64,000 nt of DNA from Gammaproteobacteria bacterium (GTDB taxonomy: Bacteria > Pseudomonadota > Gammaproteobacteria > CAJXQU01), in NCBI GenBank assembly GCA_965223825.1, contig OZ245018.1:1939792-2003791 (forward strand), written 5' to 3'. Shown here in pieces: positions 5,826 to 62,664 of this stretch. Position numbers and translations under genes: made by a program. The stretch's first letter is position 1, and every line of letters begins with the position of its first letter. The notes beneath the pieces are model-generated. The model did not search any database. It was given only the letters and a program-made list of their open reading frames with translations, and was not told the DNA's origin.

Positions 5826-6233
5826 ATGCGTAAGCTTTCTAAAATACTCGTCGCCAGCCTGTCGGCGGCTTGCCTCAACTCCCTTAGTTTTAACGTCACC
5901 GCTGCTGATGCCGAAGGCAATTATGCCGTTTGGGGTGAAGGTGGCCTTTCTTGCTTTCAATATTCAAAATTACGTGCTGAAGGGAATGACGACAAAGTAA
6001 AAGCATTTTTGCGTGGTTATCTGACCGCTTACAACACGGTAAGTGGTGACACATATAGCATTACCGGTCCAGTGAAAATGCCACAAGCTTTGGAAATTAT
6101 TGATGAACATTGTGACGAAAAAGCCATCGACAGTTTTGATCGTGCTATACAAATGATGATCACCAATGTCGAAGACAACCGTTACCGCACACCCAATCAA
6201 AAAGGTGTCGTTGGTGGTTGGGGCAAACAGTAA
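5826..6233 (+). CDS. Small secreted/periplasmic protein, hypothetical
   Basis: 135 aa; N-terminal signal peptide MRKLSKILVASLSAACLNSLSFNVTAADA; no recognisable catalytic motif. Confidence 0.55.
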   Translation: MRKLSKILVASLSAACLNSLSFNVTAADAEGNYAVWGEGGLSCFQYSKLRAEGNDDKVKAFLRGYLTAYNTVSGDTYSITGPVKMPQALEIIDEHCDEKAIDSFDRAIQMMITNVEDNRYRTPNQKGVVGGWGKQ

Positions 6234-6899: not shown

Positions 6900-6989
6900 T
6901 TGCACAACCTTATAAAATAGGTGATCATTTAAAGTGAGCACTTCGAAATCGGCCATACTGGCTAACTTTTTCTACTTAGGAGAAAACAC

Positions 6990-7274
6990 ATGATCAAAGC
7001 AACTCGTATCTCAGCTCTTATTTTGGCTGCTGGCCTCACTGCTGGTTGTAGTTCAATCACGGTTGAGCAACTGGATGCAGTCGCTGCAACAGCTAACAAC
7101 GCTCTGTCAGAAGCACGCGCAGCACAAGACGCGGCTAGCAATGCTCTGAGCGTCGCAAACGAAGCAAATGCAACTGCACAAAGCGCACAAGAAGCGGCTG
7201 ATGCTGCACAAGCTTGCTGCAATGCTAATACAGAACGTTTGGACCGTATGTTCAAACGCGCTATGCAGAAGTAA
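6990..7274 (+). CDS. Lpp-like alanine-zipper outer-membrane lipoprotein (Braun-lipoprotein-like, C-terminal Lys)
   Basis: 94 aa; signal peptide + lipobox LTAGC; Ala/Gln/Asn-rich heptad coiled coil; ends ...RLDRMFKRAMQK with terminal Lys as in E. coli Lpp (…ATKYRK); good RBS AGGAGAAAACACATG. Confidence 0.75.
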   Translation: MIKATRISALILAAGLTAGCSSITVEQLDAVAATANNALSEARAAQDAASNALSVANEANATAQSAQEAADAAQACCNANTERLDRMFKRAMQK

Positions 7275-7299
7275 TTTCTTAGTCAGCATGCACTAGATC

Positions 7300-7336
7300 A
7301 AAAAAGCCGTTCCTCGGGAACGGCTTTTTTTTATTC
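7300..7336 (+). terminator. Rho-independent terminator after lpp-like gene
   Basis: aaaaaGCCGTTCCtcgGGAACGGCttttttttatt: 9-bp stem, T8 tail. Confidence 0.85.
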
Positions 7337-7496
7337 TCATAATTTCCCTATAAACGCACTTGGAGAAAAAGAGTTTTATTAAAATTCACTCAATCCAATC
7401 TCGCCGTAAATTATCATCTCAGTTCAGTTAAATTTTTAACTTAATTTCTAAAATAAAAAAAACGTCCCATTTCGATTATTTTTAATTCAATCTGAT

Positions 7497-8597
7497 TTAA
7501 AATAATTCAGAATACGCGCCGGGTTCATGTCCAACTTTTTCGTTCTCTAGGTCAGGATCAATCAGCACTTCACTGACTGACGCTTTCGCTTCTTTCGAAA
7601 GATCTTCCATCTGGTAAGAGTCTGGTGCAGCCGCTTCTTGAATCAGCGGCAACGTATCTTGTGCTCCAGCGCGAAGGCTGATCAAGACAGGAATACCACG
7701 AGCATCCGCCATCACTTCACGCACGCGATTCCAATCAACTTTAACGTTCGCACGTTCTTTATTTTCTTTATGGGAATTTGTCGCCTTGCTGATCGTATCA
7801 ACCAAACGTTGGTAATTAGATTGCTTTTTATCTGCCTCTTCTTCTAATGGCGTATGCACTTCTAAATAGAGATCGCCATTTCGCCAACCGGCTTTGTAGG
7901 GTTGATTCACGATTGTCACCTTCGTATTTACCGGCGTCATTGCGAATAATTGCTCAATATCTTTGGGGTAAAGTCGAATACATCCGTGCGTCACACGCAT
8001 ACCTAAACCATAGGGTTTATTAGTGCCATGAATTAAGTAGCCCGATATACCCAAACCCATTTTGTAAGCACCGAGCGGGTTGTCAGGGCCAGCAGGCACC
8101 ACATCCGGAAGAATGTCGCCTTCAAGTGCATGTTCACGCTTGATCGACTCTGGAGGCGTCCAGGTTGGATTTTTCACTTTAGAAACAATCCGTGTTGATC
8201 CATGTGGCGTTGCCCAATCTTGTCGACCGATACTGATCGGGTAAGTCACCACATTCTGCTTTTGCCCACGCGCAACTTTCGGGTAATAGTACAAACGCAT
8301 TTCCGGTACATTAATAATAATTCCGTCGCGCGCTGTTTGTGGCAACACGTAATGAGTCGGTACGATAATTTCTGTCCCCTCACCGGGCAGCCAGGTATCA
8401 ACCGTTGGATTTGCACTACGCATTTCCAAAAATCCCTGATCATATGCCCAGGCCAAATCAGAAATCGTGTCCTCATGTCGTGAGGTAGTTAAGCTCAATG
8501 AACCGAGCACAGAATCACCGTTTGCCGCTAATTCAAAACTTTGAGCCAGCAATTGAAAAGGCGCTAACAAACCCATTACTAACAAATAATTTCGCAT
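7497..8597 (-). CDS. L,D-transpeptidase (YkuD/ErfK family), periplasmic
   Basis: 366 aa; signal peptide; YkuD catalytic motif HGTNKPYGLGMRVTHGCIRLYPKDIEQLF (His...Cys). Confidence 0.85.
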   Translation of the reverse strand: MRNYLLVMGLLAPFQLLAQSFELAANGDSVLGSLSLTTSRHEDTISDLAWAYDQGFLEMRSANPTVDTWLPGEGTEIIVPTHYVLPQTARDGIIINVPEMRLYYYPKVARGQKQNVVTYPISIGRQDWATPHGSTRIVSKVKNPTWTPPESIKREHALEGDILPDVVPAGPDNPLGAYKMGLGISGYLIHGTNKPYGLGMRVTHGCIRLYPKDIEQLFAMTPVNTKVTIVNQPYKAGWRNGDLYLEVHTPLEEEADKKQSNYQRLVDTISKATNSHKENKERANVKVDWNRVREVMADARGIPVLISLRAGAQDTLPLIQEAAAPDSYQMEDLSKEAKASVSEVLIDPDLENEKVGHEPGAYSELF

Positions 8598-8601
8598 AAA
8601 G

Positions 8602-8970
8602 TTATTTTAACATCGCAATAAACAGACAGAGCCAACCGATCATAAACGACACCCCGCCCAATGGCGTGATCATCCCAAACTTTCGGATATCCAATAATAC
8701 AAGTAAATAAAGACTGCCACTAAAGAGAAAAATTCCAATCAATAAACTAAAACCACTCCACTTTAACCAGCTTGATTCTGTCATAAACTGACTAATTAAG
8801 CCGATCAGGATCAAGCCAAGCGCATGGAACATGTGATACTGCACTCCCGTATTCCAAACAGCTAACATTTGTTCAGAAACGCGACTCCGGATCGCATGTG
8901 CACCAAACGCACCAAAGCCGACGCCGAGGAAGCTCATGATCGCACCCGTCATAATAAAAAACTTCGCCAC
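8602..8970 (-). CDS. DUF423 family inner-membrane protein
   Basis: 122 aa, 4 TM helices, FGAFGAHA motif characteristic of DUF423/YgdD. Confidence 0.7.
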   Translation of the reverse strand: MAKFFIMTGAIMSFLGVGFGAFGAHAIRSRVSEQMLAVWNTGVQYHMFHALGLILIGLISQFMTESSWLKWSGFSLLIGIFLFSGSLYLLVLLDIRKFGMITPLGGVSFMIGWLCLFIAMLK

Positions 8971-9011
8971 GTCTTCTCCTTAAATGATCTGTCGAACTTT
9001 AGCGCAATTTA

Positions 9012-11129
9012 TCACAAATCCACTGTTTCTCGGCTGATTAATGACACCGAAACTTGTACACCTTTCTCCGTATTATCAATAGACAGTGTACCACCGTGAA
9101 ACTCCGAAATTTGCTGCGCAATGTACAAACCAATGCCCAAATGGGGAACTTGATGCAGGCTTAACCGTGCTTTTTTATCGGCTGTGACTTCGCCCGTTTT
9201 TGGTAAATTGAAAGCTGGTCCAGAATTGTCGATCGTAATCAGAAATCGTGAGTTGATTTCATCGTCTTCCACGCGTAACACGATCTTGATCGGTGTCTCT
9301 TTTTGGGCATATTCCACCGCATTGGAAACTAATTTATCCAGCATTTGCACTAAAAGATCGGGCACTCCGATGAAGGAATACCGTTCTGAACCCTTAATGG
9401 TGCCATGTCTTTCAGCATTAAATTCAAACGGCACGCTAGGATAAGCATTACGATAGCCTTTAACACATTGATCGAGCAATTGGTCGAGTTCAATCACGGA
9501 ATAATCAGCGCTGCGTAGCGCTTGATCAAGATGTGCCGCCTCACTTAAACGAACGGTTAAACGTTGTAAACGCGCGATACCTTCTCGTGCGCGCGTGAGA
9601 TAAACCAACCGCTCATCCCCTTCTGCATTAGCAAGATTTTCCAGTGATGACTGCACAACAGCCATCGGCGTTTGTAGCTCGTGCGAAAGTTTTCCAGCCA
9701 AGCTTTCCAAATAATCATGGTGCTCAGACAAACGTTTTAACATTAATGAATATTGTTGCGAAAGATCGCCGAGCTCATCTGCCCACGGCTTACCCACTTC
9801 GGTTTCCACCACACGTCCGTTGATATCGATCGCGGCATTAGCATCACGGCTCAACCGTCGAATTCGACGAGACAAACTGGCCGAAAATATTAACAACAGC
9901 AACGTCACAAAAACAAAAACCAACAAGGTGCGTGTGAATAAATTCGCTAGGGCCTGACGTTGTACCATTTGCAAATTACCCGTGGTTTCTTCAACGATTA
10001 CAGCACCGATTATATTCTCACCGAATCGTATCGGTTGTGCTGCGGAGACAATCGCAGCCTCTTCATCCGATGATGAGCGCCAGCGTAATGCAGCTTTTCC
10101 TGATAATGCTTGCAACACTTCCTGCCCCTGCAAACGGGATGCGCCTTGTAATTCATCACGAAAACGATCATTCACCGACGGGAGGATTAAACGATAAAAA
10201 CGATTCACGAATTGACGGCGATCAGGATTTCGCAAAGAGCCACGCGTCGCCAACACATTACCCACTTGATCCAACACCCAAATACGACGACCCGGTGACA
10301 AGCTCAGTGCGTGTAAATGCGCATTGAGCTGATCAGAACTGCTGACTAAATGGTTCAATAATTGAGGCTGCTCAGGATCAAAACTCTCGATCACGTCAAT
10401 CTTAGTCGCCTTATTCGGTTGAAGTCGCACGTCGACATCGTGAATAATGAAACCTAAATCCTCAGCAAGCACATTCTCTGGCATGCGCAGCTCCACGCTA
10501 TAACCCTGGTCGTGCTCTTGCCAAAAACCATGTGCATTCGTCACTTTTCGGACAAATGGTCGTGGCTCCCAGATCGTCTCATCCCAGACCAAGCCTTGTT
10601 CGTAAATCCCGATTTGCCCCGGTGCCGCTGGCGCAAGCCACCAGTGCTGACGATCACCCTGTTCGTCGTGATAGATCAGTTCGATCTGATCACCTTGCAC
10701 CTCAAAAGGTTGATCGGGTGACTGATAGATAAGATTCTCGTCATTCACATAGAACAACAAATAACGCTCCTGATCGCGTTGCGCGATCAGGACTTTTACG
10801 GTGAGTTTTCCGTCTGCTGAAGAAAACACTTCGGCCCATTGCAACAGGCTATCCCAATCTTCGGTGTAACCATCTACTTGCACAACTTGACGCATTGGGT
10901 GAATAAACAAAGATCGCAAACTATTCGGTGACGCTTCGGGGAAAGAATCGGCCTTGCTAACGAGAAATCCGGCGGCCATGCTCGCATCGCCCGCGAGAGA
11001 AACTTCTAGCCCTTCGCGCAAAAACGACTCCATTTCACGCACATAATCATAGGCGACATAAGGCAAACTCAGGACAGCAATCGCGATCAGTACTAGTTGC
11101 CGTCGAATAGAAAAACGGTGTCGACTCAT
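9012..11129 (-). CDS. Sensor histidine kinase with large periplasmic sensing domain
   Basis: 705 aa; N-terminal TM, ~350-aa periplasmic region, second TM, HAMP-like, H-box SHELQTPMAVVQSSLENL, C-terminal HATPase (GIGLYIAQQISEFHGGTL). Confidence 0.85.
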   Translation of the reverse strand: MSRHRFSIRRQLVLIAIAVLSLPYVAYDYVREMESFLREGLEVSLAGDASMAAGFLVSKADSFPEASPNSLRSLFIHPMRQVVQVDGYTEDWDSLLQWAEVFSSADGKLTVKVLIAQRDQERYLLFYVNDENLIYQSPDQPFEVQGDQIELIYHDEQGDRQHWWLAPAAPGQIGIYEQGLVWDETIWEPRPFVRKVTNAHGFWQEHDQGYSVELRMPENVLAEDLGFIIHDVDVRLQPNKATKIDVIESFDPEQPQLLNHLVSSSDQLNAHLHALSLSPGRRIWVLDQVGNVLATRGSLRNPDRRQFVNRFYRLILPSVNDRFRDELQGASRLQGQEVLQALSGKAALRWRSSSDEEAAIVSAAQPIRFGENIIGAVIVEETTGNLQMVQRQALANLFTRTLLVFVFVTLLLLIFSASLSRRIRRLSRDANAAIDINGRVVETEVGKPWADELGDLSQQYSLMLKRLSEHHDYLESLAGKLSHELQTPMAVVQSSLENLANAEGDERLVYLTRAREGIARLQRLTVRLSEAAHLDQALRSADYSVIELDQLLDQCVKGYRNAYPSVPFEFNAERHGTIKGSERYSFIGVPDLLVQMLDKLVSNAVEYAQKETPIKIVLRVEDDEINSRFLITIDNSGPAFNLPKTGEVTADKKARLSLHQVPHLGIGLYIAQQISEFHGGTLSIDNTEKGVQVSVSLISRETVDL

Positions 11130-16130: not shown

Positions 16131-16270
16131 TCGCGGAGGGCGATGGATGGTCATGCTCAGAATCAACCGCCTGTCATGCCGCGATCACGTCTATCGTGTT
16201 CCACCATCAAACTCTCTGCTATCACCATTTCTTTGCTGTTCGGGTTGGAACGGTAACGGGGAGAATAAAA

Positions 16271-18217
16271 TTGAATAATATTACAGCAGGTTCATTTGCC
16301 CTGCTCACGACAGTTGGCCTGATCGCATCCGCGCAGGCAGAAAACATCCAGAACCTTGACGATGTATTAGTCACCGCATCTCGCGCACCGATTGCAAAAG
16401 ATCAAACCGGCTCATCGTATACCGTCATCACCGCAGAACAGATCGAGCAATCTCAACAAGTACAAGTGCATGAATTATTGCGAACTGTGCCCGGCATCGC
16501 AGTAAGTCGATCTGGTGGTATTGGATCGCAAACACAAATTCGTATGCGAGGCGCGGAGGCTGATCAGACATTAATTTTGATCGACGGCATCGAAGCAAAC
16601 GATCCTGGTCAAGGCTCTAGTTTTGATTTTGCGCATTTACTGACTGCCGATATTGAACGTATCGAAATCCTGCGTGGCCCACAAAGTGCGCTGTGGGGAA
16701 GTGATGCGATGGGTGGCGTGATCAATATCATTACTAAATCCGCGACCCGGAACCAGTTAAATGCCACGCTCGAAGCGGGAAGTTATTCTACAGTCCAGAA
16801 CACCATCAGTGGCAGTGTTGCTGGCGATCGCTACGGTATTGCCGTTAATGGTAATTTTCTACGCAGTGCTGGTATCAATGTCTCAGAGCAAGGCGATGAA
16901 GAGGATGGCTACCGGAATTCGACTTTGAATTTAAAAGCAAATTTCAACCCATTCGACAATCTTGATCTACTTTTTACCGCTCGCAAAAGCGCATCAGAAA
17001 AAGACTTCGATCCAACCTCGTTCATCACCTCCAAACCCGTGGATGGCGATCGCATCTCAGACGTTGATCAGTTTTATAGCCAATTTAATGCCGTATTGGA
17101 TACCTTAGATGGCCACTGGCAACACGTGTTCAACATCGCGTGGACCAAAACTGACAACGATAATTTTGCCGACGGTGTTGAAAACAGTTCAACCAATGGT
17201 GAAAAACGTAAAGTGAGTTATCAAAGCAATTTTTTCTTTGATACACCTTCATTTGCTGAGGCTGAACATACGTTAAGTCTCGCGCTGGAATACGAGCGTG
17301 AAGAATTTAAACAAACCGGCACCGCCAGCACATTCGGTAACCCAAACCAAGAACAGGATTTGAGTAACCGAGGCGTCATTGGTGAATACCGCATCAGCCT
17401 ACTCAAACAAATCCACGCATCTGCATCCATCAGACATGATAATAACGACGCATTTGATGATGCGACCACGTGGCGGACGAATATCGCGTGGGCAATTCCA
17501 AACACCGGTTCTACAGTACGTGCAGCTTATGGTACTGCTGTGAAAAATCCGTCATTCACGGAGCGGTTTGGTTTTACACCGGATACTTTCTTCGGTAACA
17601 CGAACCTCGAACCGGAAGAATCCAAAGGCTGGGAAATTGGTCTCGATCAATCTTTCTTGCAAGATCGCCTCACCGCCAGCGTGACATATTTTAAAGAGCG
17701 GTTAGAAAACGAAATTAACGGCTTCGTGTTTGATCCGACTCTCGGCACTTTTGGTGGTTTCACCGCACAAAACGTGCAAGGTGACAGCAAACGTCATGGT
17801 GTTGAACTGGCGCTAAACGCGATCATTTCTGACGCGCTCAGCATGAACGGCATGCTCACGTATGTTGACTCAACTCAGCCCGATGCTAATGGTGAGCAAA
17901 TCCGCGAGTTACGACGCCCTGAATACACTGCCGCGTTTGGGACGAATTATCGTTTTTTTCATAACAAAGCGAGCGTCAACCTCGATATCAGCTATACCGA
18001 CACGCAAAATGACAGTGACTTCAGCACATTTCCTGCAACACTCGTTACACTTGACGACTATGTGTTAGTGAATATTGCGACAGAATACGCGGTTCACCCT
18101 CGTGTGACCTTATTCGGCCGTATCGATAATCTCCTCGATGACGACTATCGCGATGTTTATGGTTACAACACAACGGGAATCGCCGGTTATGCGGGTTTTC
18201 GTGTTAGCTTGTATTAA
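16271..18217 (+). CDS. btuB: TonB-dependent outer-membrane receptor, cobalamin-type (BtuB-like)
   Basis: ORF 16196..18217; likely TTG start at 16271 after RBS GGGGAGA; signal peptide, TonB box region DVLVTASR, plug + 22-strand barrel, C-terminal aromatic YAGFRVSLY; riboswitch-controlled and followed by btuF/cobO. Confidence 0.85.
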   Translation: MNNITAGSFALLTTVGLIASAQAENIQNLDDVLVTASRAPIAKDQTGSSYTVITAEQIEQSQQVQVHELLRTVPGIAVSRSGGIGSQTQIRMRGAEADQTLILIDGIEANDPGQGSSFDFAHLLTADIERIEILRGPQSALWGSDAMGGVINIITKSATRNQLNATLEAGSYSTVQNTISGSVAGDRYGIAVNGNFLRSAGINVSEQGDEEDGYRNSTLNLKANFNPFDNLDLLFTARKSASEKDFDPTSFITSKPVDGDRISDVDQFYSQFNAVLDTLDGHWQHVFNIAWTKTDNDNFADGVENSSTNGEKRKVSYQSNFFFDTPSFAEAEHTLSLALEYEREEFKQTGTASTFGNPNQEQDLSNRGVIGEYRISLLKQIHASASIRHDNNDAFDDATTWRTNIAWAIPNTGSTVRAAYGTAVKNPSFTERFGFTPDTFFGNTNLEPEESKGWEIGLDQSFLQDRLTASVTYFKERLENEINGFVFDPTLGTFGGFTAQNVQGDSKRHGVELALNAIISDALSMNGMLTYVDSTQPDANGEQIRELRRPEYTAAFGTNYRFFHNKASVNLDISYTDTQNDSDFSTFPATLVTLDDYVLVNIATEYAVHPRVTLFGRIDNLLDDDYRDVYGYNTTGIAGYAGFRVSLY

Positions 18218-60655: not shown

Positions 60656-62359
60656 CTAAAATAAGAAGTAACGTTGCGCTAATGGTAATTCCGTTGCTGG
60701 TTCGCACATTAAGAGTTGGCCATCGGCATGGACTTGGTACGTTTCCGGATCAACCTCGATCGTCGGCTGATAATCGTTCAGATACATATCTTTTTTCTGA
60801 ACATTCCGACAGTTTTTCACTGCTGCCAGTCTTTTTTGTAAGCCAAGTTTTTGCGCAATGCCCTGACTGATCGCCACTTGCGAAACGAAGGTCAAACACG
60901 TTTCATGTCGTGCGCCACCAAAGGCACCAAACATCGGACGATAATGCACAGGCTGTGGGGTTGGAATAGACGCATTGGGATCACCCATCGCGGCGGCGGC
61001 GATCATGCCGCCTTTTACTATAATCGAGGGTTTTGCCCCAAACATAGCAGGATTCCAGATCACCAGATCAGCTAACTTACCCACTTCGACTGATCCGACT
61101 TCGTGACTGATACCATGCGTGATCGCAGGGTTAATTGTGTATTTTGCAATGTAACGTTTCGCGCGCAAGTTATCGTGTCGATCACTATCTTCTGGTAATG
61201 CACCACGTTGTACTTTCATCTTATGTGCGGTTTGCCAAGTTCGCGTGATCACCTCCCCTACTCGTCCCATGGCTTGCGAGTCTGACGAAATCATCGAGAA
61301 CGCGCCAAGATCATGCAGAATATCCTCCGCTGCGATCGTTTCGCGACGAATTCGCGATTCCGCAAATGCAACGTCTTCCGCAATCGACGGATCAAGATGG
61401 TGACAGACCATCAGCATATCCAAATGTTCGTCGACCGTATTGATCGTATAAGGCCGCGTAGGGTTGGTTGATGACGGTAACACATTCGCTTCACCGCAAG
61501 CTTTGATAATATCCGGTGCATGGCCACCGCCCGCACCTTCCGTGTGATACGTATGAATCGTCCGACCTTTAAAGGCTGCAAGCGTATCTTCTACAAAACC
61601 AGACTCGTTTAATGTGTCAGTATGAATCGCAACTTGAATATCGGTCTCTTCTGCAACACTCAAACACGTATCGATCGCGGCTGGCGTTGTCCCCCAATCT
61701 TCGTGGAGTTTTAAACCCATCGCACCCGCAGCAACTTGTTCCGTTAAGGCTTCTGGTAACGACGCATTACCTTTTCCCATAAAACCTAAATTCATCGGGA
61801 ACGCATCTGCCGACTGCAGCATTTTTCCAATATTCCAAGGGCCTGAAGTACAGGTTGTTGCATTCGTGCCCGTTGCGGGGCCAGTGCCACCACCAAGCAT
61901 AGTCGTGATACCAGACATGAGTGCTTCTTCAATTTGCTGCGGACAAATGTAATGAATATGCGCATCAATTCCACCGGCTGTAATGATTGACCCTTCACCG
62001 GCAATCACTTCCGTTCCTGGCCCAACAATAACATCAACATTTGCTTGCGTATCAGGGTTACCACCTTTTCCGATGCCACTAATGCGTCCGTCTTTAATAC
62101 CAATATCAGCTTTATAAATACCAGTATGATCAAGAATTAGCGCATTCGTGATAATCACGTCGACAACATGTTCTGCTGTCAGCTGAGATTGGCCCATGCC
62201 ATCGCGGATCACTTTGCCGCCACCGAATTTCACCTCATCACCATAAACGGTGAAATCCTTTTCAACTTCAATAATTATCTCGGTGTCACCTAAACGAACA
62301 CGATCGCCCACTGTCGGACCGAACATTTCTGCGTAGGCACGTTTATCCATCTGACTCAT
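60656..62359 (-). CDS. ureC: Urease alpha subunit UreC
   Basis: ~567 aa; [27 protein letters not shown]-terminus, MVCHHLD and other urease active-site motifs; TGATG 1-nt overlap with ureB. Confidence 0.95.
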
Positions 62360-62664
62360 CACAGATCCCCCATGATTTTTCCGTTAAACCCAAATACACG
62401 TCGGCTGCCCACATACGGAACTAAGCTAATCGTACGGGAATGACCGGGTTCAAAACGGACAGCCGTTCCAGATGGAATATCCAAACGCATTCCACGCGCT
62501 TGTTCTCGATCAAACGAAAGCGCTGCATTGGTTTCATAAAAATGGTAATGCGATCCTATTTGGATTGGCCTATCACCCGTATTCGTAATGCTAAGGGTCA
62601 CTTTTTGCAGGCCTTGATTTATTTCTATCGTGCCTTCATCGACGATCAGTTCACCTGGAATCAT
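62359..62664 (-). CDS. ureB: Urease beta subunit UreB
   Basis: 101 aa; [11 protein letters not shown]...[13 protein letters not shown]. Confidence 0.9.

Follow-up and report, generated by a model that had tools for sequence, protein, structure and literature searches.

A convergent lipoprotein and L,D-transpeptidase gene pair in a gammaproteobacterial genome probably corresponds to the Pseudomonas oprI/ldtPae2 locus

Organization of the gene pair

The window analyzed here is a 64,000-nucleotide (nt) stretch of contig OZ245018.1 from a gammaproteobacterial genome. Near its left end, a gene for a lipoprotein with a 94-amino-acid (aa) precursor and a gene for a periplasmic L,D-transpeptidase (Ldt; the gene is called ldt below) face each other on opposite strands, with 222 nt between the two stop codons (Table 1). 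The original prediction had described a lipobox LTAG↓C (the arrow marks the cleavage site), alanine heptads and a C-terminal KRAMQK in the lipoprotein, together with HGTNKP and THGCIRL in the convergent enzyme, and all of these elements are present. It had further regarded the lipoprotein as a functional analogue of Escherichia coli Lpp, outside the territory in which such proteins are known, and the enzyme as its dedicated Ldt. Here we characterize the two products, survey the distribution of the pair and weigh the functions that it may have.

Table 1. Coordinates of the gene pair and of neighboring features in the 64-kb window.
Feature	Position	Strand	Basis and remarks
Shine-Dalgarno AGGAG	6978-6982	+	Read from the sequence; 7 nt before the lipoprotein ATG
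Lpp/OprI-family alanine-zipper lipoprotein, 94-aa precursor	6990-7274	+	Open reading frame (ORF); PF11839 and NF040598; AlphaFold2 (AF2) model; stop codon 7272-7274
Signal peptide and lipobox GLTAG↓C	6990-7049	+	Sequence; Cys20 codon 7047-7049, predicted lipidated N-terminus
Cys76-Cys77, heptad positions g and a	7215-7220	+	Alignment A1; cysteine counts
C-terminal Lys94, predicted attachment residue for meso-diaminopimelic acid (mDAP)	7269-7271	+	Conservation; role inferred from OprI and Lpp (PMC10434034)
GC-rich hairpin, 14 bp, flanked by A6 and T8	7300-7330		dG -20.7 kcal/mol; z -4.89; 0 of 200 shuffles fold as well
Periplasmic L,D-transpeptidase, ErfK/YbiS/YcfS/YnhG/LdtPae2 lineage, 366 aa (359 aa from Met8)	7497-8597	-	Pfam, NCBIfam, PDB
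YkuD catalytic domain, residues 92-229, with His190 and T203-H-G-C206-I-R208	7911-8324	-	Pfam; alignment A2; codon of catalytic Cys206 7980-7982
Acidic low-complexity C-terminal tail of the enzyme, residues ~310-366	7497-7670	-
135-aa protein with signal peptide	5826-6233	+
Cobalamin riboswitch RF00174	15920-16130	+	93.2 bits
673-aa ORF	16196-18217
568-aa ORF	60656-62362	-
Match to RF02514 (Helicobacter 5' ureB small RNA)	61924-62209	+	97.9 bits

The lipoprotein belongs to the OprI branch

The lipoprotein precursor reads MIKATRISALILAAGLTAG↓CSS...KRAMQK, with Ser at position +2, and its mature form (Cys20-Lys94) comprises 75 aa. The heptad register was worked out from the 3-4 spacing of the alanines, which places a at residues 28, 35, 42 ... 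77, 84 and 91 and d at residues 31, 38 ... 80, 87 and 94. All the a and d positions from 35 to 73 are occupied by Ala (residues 35, 38, 42, 45, 49, 52, 56, 59, 63, 66, 70 and 73). The AF2 model of the monomer is a single unbroken helix that spans residues 25-93; at ~0.15 nm per residue, the model implies a rod of ~10 nm, somewhat longer than Lpp.

The 94-aa protein matches PF11839 (Alanine-zipper, major outer membrane lipoprotein) with 48.1 bits against a cut-off of 23.1, and NF040598 (Lpp/OprI family alanine-zipper lipoprotein) with 58.1 bits against a cut-off of 43 over residues 5-94. In contrast, the classical LPP model PF04728 was not matched in a Pfam scan at E ≤ 0.01. The protein is thus a member of the long-known OprI branch and not a new analogue outside known territory, as had been proposed. 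A profile of its family nevertheless aligns with E. coli Lpp over the full length (hhalign probability 88%, E 2.7e-6). When solved structures were searched with the lipoprotein alone, the matches were weak and non-significant, the best relevant one being 9tz4, which is named 'Major outer membrane lipoprotein' (E 2.4).

The family alignments show little or no variation at the lipobox Cys, the alanines at a and d and the terminal Lys; in alignments A1 and A3, Cys20 never varies and Gly19 hardly does. The terminal Lys is present in 135 of 140 family representatives and in each of the 65 homologues encoded next to a related enzyme (see below), although the residues that precede it vary. A search of 1.84 billion cluster representatives with the lipoprotein profile returned 1208 clusters at E ≤ 1e-3, of which 270 remain at E ≤ 1e-10. 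Among the lipoproteins of the surveyed loci, the mature form has between 52 and 104 residues, with a median of 75, which is the length of the window protein, compared with 58 for E. coli Lpp. This wide range may tune the strength of the tether and the width of the periplasm: if length sets how far the outer membrane lies from peptidoglycan, as has been reported for Lpp, the periplasm would vary widely in width across these lineages. The search of cluster representatives also found a 2222-aa protein (P0308) that matches the alanine-zipper profile in 14 separate stretches and may be either a giant coiled-coil relative built of repeats or an artefact of low complexity.

The convergent gene encodes a YkuD-type transpeptidase

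The neighboring enzyme carries a signal peptide and a YkuD domain (PF03734, 89.4 bits), while its Ldt_C match (24.6 bits) lies just under the cut-off of 26.8. Public annotation starts the protein at the internal Met8 (P0030; 359 aa, 100% identical). His190 and the T203-H-G-C206-I-R208 motif are invariant in alignment A2, the numbering of which is one lower because Met1 is omitted. The motif (S/T)xGCh(R/N) is typical of transpeptidases, and SxGChA of the YafK/DpaA hydrolases that release Lpp (PMC10434034); with Arg208 after Cys-Ile, THGCIR fits the transpeptidase type and not the hydrolase type. The NCBIfam models for E. coli LdtE, ErfK and YbiS-type enzymes match at about E 1e-63, all under their equivalog cut-offs. 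Among solved structures, the LD-transpeptidase 9tyw matches residues 20-310 (E 4.8e-90) and 4lzh matches residues 21-304. The window enzyme and its counterparts in Stutzerimonas and E. coli can be aligned over ~300 residues and share a layout of an N-terminal domain, YkuD and Ldt_C.

The last ~55 residues of the enzyme form an acidic low-complexity tail (…QEAAAPDSYQMEDLSKEAKASVSEVLIDPDLENEKVGHEPGAYSELF). This tail is absent from the 320-334-aa Stutzerimonas and E. coli enzymes, and most database relatives cover only ~80% of the query.

The gene pair is conserved across diverse Gammaproteobacteria

To determine the distribution of the pair, one genome per species was searched with an alignment of the relatives of the enzyme, and the recovered loci were scanned for the lipoprotein with a hidden Markov model built from lipoprotein homologues. 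The survey covered at least 80 loci with enzymes 44-57% identical to the query, and the record labels of its metagenome-assembled genomes include Chromatiales, Steroidobacteraceae, Woeseiaceae, Haliea/Halioglobus, Methylophaga, Sedimenticola, Halomonas and one Nitrosomonas. An alanine-zipper lipoprotein is encoded directly downstream of the enzyme, on the opposite strand, in 65 of 80 loci. Since five of the 15 negative loci offer less than 210 nt of downstream sequence, the rate is taken as 65 of 75 testable loci (87%). The median gap between the two stop codons of the surveyed pairs is 82 nt. The co-occurrence in related genomes that the original prediction had called for is therefore found, and synteny is clearly not lost among relatives.

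The other genes that flank the pair in the window are kept nearby far less often: of 80 loci, 15 have the gene for a DUF423 protein upstream of the enzyme, 10 have the 135-aa ORF, nine a NUDIX gene and one the histidine kinase gene. The persistence of the lipoprotein in 87% of the testable loci, while the other neighbors are lost, is difficult to account for unless the two are directly tied in function. A divergent small lipoprotein with a terminal Lys was looked for in the ten negative testable loci, and none was found; these loci are genuine losses or paralogues.

At three loci without the lipoprotein (L058, L075 and L082), the enzyme relative lies between a gene for a LemA-like lipoprotein and a gene for a rhomboid-like membrane protein, both named from their translations alone. 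This setting suggests a distinct paralogous context.

Comparison with the Pseudomonas and E. coli loci

A search with an OprI sequence found database proteins identical to it over the whole length (100%), and other matches from Stutzerimonas and Pseudomonas records are named 'Major outer membrane lipoprotein' or 'Lpp/OprI family alanine-zipper lipoprotein'. Contigs of Stutzerimonas and of the Pseudomonas lineage have oprI tail to tail with a YkuD gene across a gap of 83-126 nt, and beyond the YkuD gene come a 93-aa ORF, a GDSL lipase gene and ABC transporter genes. The Stutzerimonas YkuD protein adjoining oprI shares 45% identity with the window enzyme, and 9tyw is 77% identical to the corresponding product on a Pseudomonas-lineage contig. 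In P. aeruginosa, oprI carries the locus tag PA2853 (PMC4694138), and a putative L,D-transpeptidase is encoded by PA2854 (bioRxiv 10.64898/2026.04.14.718437). Among the papers searched, none was found that notes the adjacency of oprI and ldt.

The function of such an enzyme has been established by Hugonneau-Beaufet et al. (2023), who identified LdtPae2 (PA14_27180) as the sole enzyme that anchors OprI, via the C-terminal Lys (PMC10434034). Deletion of ldtPae2 removes the OprI-derived Tri→Lys-Arg muropeptide; expression of ldtPae2 in E. coli devoid of its six ldt genes anchors Lpp; and loss of either OprI or LdtPae2 is followed by sensitivity to ethylenediaminetetraacetic acid. The cross-links of P. 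aeruginosa are made by a different protein, LdtPae1 (PMC10434034).

The window protein resembles OprI in its curated family (PF11839/NF040598), its lipobox, its alanine-zipper helix and its C-terminal Lys, and the locus resembles that of oprI in the tail-to-tail placement with an enzyme of the same lineage and common domain layout. There are also clear differences. The mature window protein has 75 aa compared with ~64 in OprI, ends in M-Q-K instead of S-R-K and carries Cys76-Cys77; the enzyme has the extra acidic tail that the Pseudomonas type lacks; and the surrounding genes differ completely.

The same arrangement occurs in E. coli K-12, where lpp (plus strand) and ldtE (minus strand) are convergent and 63 nt apart (NC_000913.3, 1757421-1758725). 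Lpp is a triacylated, trimeric coiled-coil lipoprotein whose terminal Lys is joined to mDAP by YkuD enzymes, and the window protein is predicted from its family to share these properties. Unlike Lpp, it has no PF04728 match; it is 25% identical to Lpp, and its mature form is 17 residues longer. The window enzyme is 37% identical to LdtE, also called YnhG, which cross-links peptidoglycan; Lpp itself is anchored by the paralogues ErfK, YbiS and YcfS (LdtA/B/C), which are encoded elsewhere (PMC10434034). The pairing of the two genes outside the enterobacteria, which had been put forward as the novelty of the locus, is thus found at oprI in the Pseudomonas lineage as well as at E. coli lpp/ldtE. 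The gene arrangement is already present in the two best-studied systems, the mechanism is demonstrated in E. coli and P. aeruginosa, and both proteins would already receive correct names from an automatic annotation pipeline, so that little is at stake for the gene pair alone.

Two further systems invite comparison. Licanantase of Acidithiobacillus thiooxidans is an Lpp-like alanine-zipper lipoprotein for which trimers were detected by cross-linking (PMC4137666); we liken it to the window protein by its description and not by sequence. Unlike the window protein, Licanantase is described as the major protein of the secretome, and PMC4137666 reports neither a link to peptidoglycan nor a partner Ldt. 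In Coxiella and Alphaproteobacteria, L,D-transpeptidases join β-barrel outer-membrane proteins to peptidoglycan (PMC10434034; 10.1101/2021.05.31.446380). There, too, a YkuD enzyme attaches an outer-membrane protein covalently to the wall, as proposed here, but the substrate is not a coiled-coil lipoprotein ending in Lys, which makes it a different solution to the same problem.

Proposed anchoring reaction and its alternatives

Taken together, these data suggest that the pair corresponds to Pseudomonas oprI/ldtPae2 and that the neighboring enzyme ties Lys94 of the lipoprotein to peptidoglycan, a reading to which we assign a probability of roughly 0.7 and which, as a deduction from homology and synteny, is well supported. 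The precursor would be exported by Sec and triacylated at Cys20, and the signal peptide would be removed. With Ser at +2, Lol-dependent sorting would place the lipoprotein in the inner leaflet of the outer membrane, where residues ~25-93 of each chain, as one long helix, would assemble into a parallel trimeric coiled coil of ~10 nm with an alanine core; the trimer is proposed by analogy with Lpp-56 and Licanantase. In the periplasm, Cys206 of the YkuD enzyme would attack a tetrapeptide stem at its mDAP-D-Ala bond, with loss of D-Ala, and the resulting thioester would be resolved by the ε-amine of Lys94, so that the outer membrane becomes covalently tied to the wall. The window enzyme is itself probably the anchoring enzyme, as judged from its closer relationship to the Pseudomonas type, its persistent linkage to the presumed substrate and the experiments in Pseudomonas.

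Several observations weigh against this assignment. Anchoring and cross-linking Ldts are inseparable by phylogeny or by sequence signature (PMC10434034). LdtE/YnhG, which occupies the equivalent position next to lpp in E. coli, is a cross-linking enzyme, and the LdtE model is the best NCBIfam match of the window enzyme, with 213 bits against a cut-off of 480, which permits no equivalog assignment to LdtA/B/C/E. The terminal Lys is preceded by Gln, where Lpp and OprI have Arg. Pseudomonas strains differ in the extent to which their OprI is covalently attached (PMC4694138). No second Ldt gene and no second alanine-zipper gene were found within the 64-kb window, and other Ldt paralogues may lie outside it in the genome of ~3.3 Mb. 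Moreover, the identity of LdtPae2 (PA14_27180) with PA2854 is a step that we infer from the three-member Ldt inventory of P. aeruginosa and from the proximity of the locus tag to that of efp. The gene efp is PA14_27210 and PA2851. A search of the supplement of PMC10434034 for PA2854 and for a sequence fragment gave no matches.

Alternatively, the enzyme could mainly form 3→3 cross-links, as LdtE/YnhG does, with the lipoprotein anchored by an Ldt encoded elsewhere, or could perform both reactions. The convergence of lpp and ldtE, the top rank of the LdtE model and the classification of YnhG as a cross-linking enzyme of the same lineage as LdtPae2, in a phylogeny that does not reveal function (PMC10434034), favor this possibility. 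However, the window enzyme is nearer to the Pseudomonas-type neighbor of oprI (45%; 9tyw, E 4.8e-90) than to LdtE (37%), the sole anchoring enzyme of P. aeruginosa is LdtPae2 while LdtPae1 makes the cross-links, and the lipoprotein stays linked in 87% of the testable loci where the other neighbors are lost; we consider a mainly cross-linking role rather unlikely. The original notion of a tether made by the neighboring Ldt is therefore retained on the grounds of family membership, the conserved Lys, synteny and the P. aeruginosa pair, whereas 'dedicated Ldt' is too strong a term for an enzyme whose positional counterpart in E. coli cross-links peptidoglycan.

The lipoprotein might instead be a free, non-covalent coiled coil of the outer membrane or the secretome, comparable to free Lpp or to Licanantase, with an Ldt of unrelated function beside it. 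The strain-dependent attachment of OprI (PMC4694138) and the abundance of Licanantase in the A. thiooxidans secretome (PMC4137666) are consistent with this view. It is rendered improbable by the C-terminal Lys, which is retained in 65 of 65 syntenic homologues while the preceding residues vary, and by the conserved linkage to an Ldt, which argues that this Lys is used as an acceptor. That the two genes are adjacent by coincidence, as a remnant of general local synteny, might be argued from their convergence, by which they are not co-transcribed, and from the lack of an identified shared regulatory element. Yet the pair is kept in 65 of 75 testable loci of different species, even though their enzymes are only 44-57% identical to the query and DUF423, NUDIX, the 135-aa ORF and the histidine kinase persist in 15, 9, 10 and 1 of 80 loci, and it recurs in the Pseudomonas lineage and in E. 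coli. The synteny survey effectively refutes a coincidental origin.

A conserved cysteine pair

Most members, including the window protein, carry Cys76-Cys77, which is missing from OprI and E. coli Lpp (alignment A1). Of the 65 syntenic homologues, 46 contain CC, five contain CxxxC a few residues further on, 14 contain no Cys, and none contains a single Cys. The mature domains of the 140 representatives show two Cys in 115 cases, none in 18 and three in two; the remaining five were left out of the count, as no lipobox was recognizable by the pattern used. The absence of members with a single Cys suggests that inter-chain disulfides are formed.

Cys77 occupies core position a and Cys76 position g. 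In a parallel coiled coil, the g residue packs against the a residue of the adjoining chain, which makes a ring of three inter-chain disulfides geometrically plausible, and disulfide-stapled trimeric coiled coils exist elsewhere. It is plausible from the register that a Cys76 (g)-Cys77 (a) ring near the peptidoglycan end would lock the trimer in this dominant environmental subfamily. In that case, one peptidoglycan-linked chain would hold all three lipid anchors covalently, and the paired cysteines may thereby affect how the tether works.

A possible ancestral module

The layout of E. coli lpp/ldtE is the same as that of the window and of oprI in the Pseudomonas lineage, which suggests that all three descend from one ancestral locus, and the lpp/oprI-ldt module looks ancestral in Gammaproteobacteria. 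The combined proposal, in which the convergent pair is a single ancestral gammaproteobacterial module and its cysteine-bearing subfamily forms disulfide-locked trimers, is more tentative, and we regard it as somewhat doubtful as a whole.

A survey with PF04728 only had limited Lpp to Aeromonadales, Alteromonadales, Enterobacterales and Vibrionales (10.1101/2021.05.31.446380). The four-order statement has to be qualified, because it rested on this one model: the OprI-type family, together with a partner enzyme placed as at E. coli lpp, adds many further lineages to those with Lpp-type tethers, and if the module is ancestral, covalent tethering of this type would be far wider than PF04728 searches alone indicate. 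The tail-to-tail pair could serve as a simple genomic marker for such tethering across diverse Gammaproteobacteria, and the joint travel of the lipoprotein with an ErfK-type L,D-transpeptidase should be of some value to researchers of the cell envelope.

Intergenic hairpin and surrounding genes

The two genes of the pair would have separate promoters. A scan for sigma-70 promoters upstream of the lipoprotein gene yielded nothing, with site counts not above those of shuffled sequence. The hairpin between the genes begins 25 nt past the lipoprotein stop and is likely a bidirectional intrinsic terminator. The idea that a conserved terminator of this kind explains the convergent layout was rejected: a hairpin with both A and T runs was found in only five of 60 intergenic regions, and it is therefore not a general feature. 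No RNA family of Rfam was found within or near the gene pair.

On the minus strand (8595-11129), the stop codon of a gene for a DUF423 (YgdD-like) membrane protein lies 4 nt before the ldt start. The DUF423 gene follows a histidine kinase gene on the same strand after 41 nt, and a response-regulator gene further upstream overlaps the kinase start (locus L001). Given the 4-nt spacing and the same-strand genes upstream, ldt may be co-transcribed with the DUF423, histidine kinase and response-regulator genes, which would place the enzyme under two-component control. On the other side of the pair, the 135-aa protein, which carries a signal peptide, is matched by neither Pfam nor NCBIfam.

Two matches to RNA families were found elsewhere in the window. 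The RF02514 match lies antisense inside the 568-aa ORF and most likely reflects the conservation of a urease subunit gene and not a real small RNA. The cobalamin riboswitch is located directly upstream of the 673-aa ORF.

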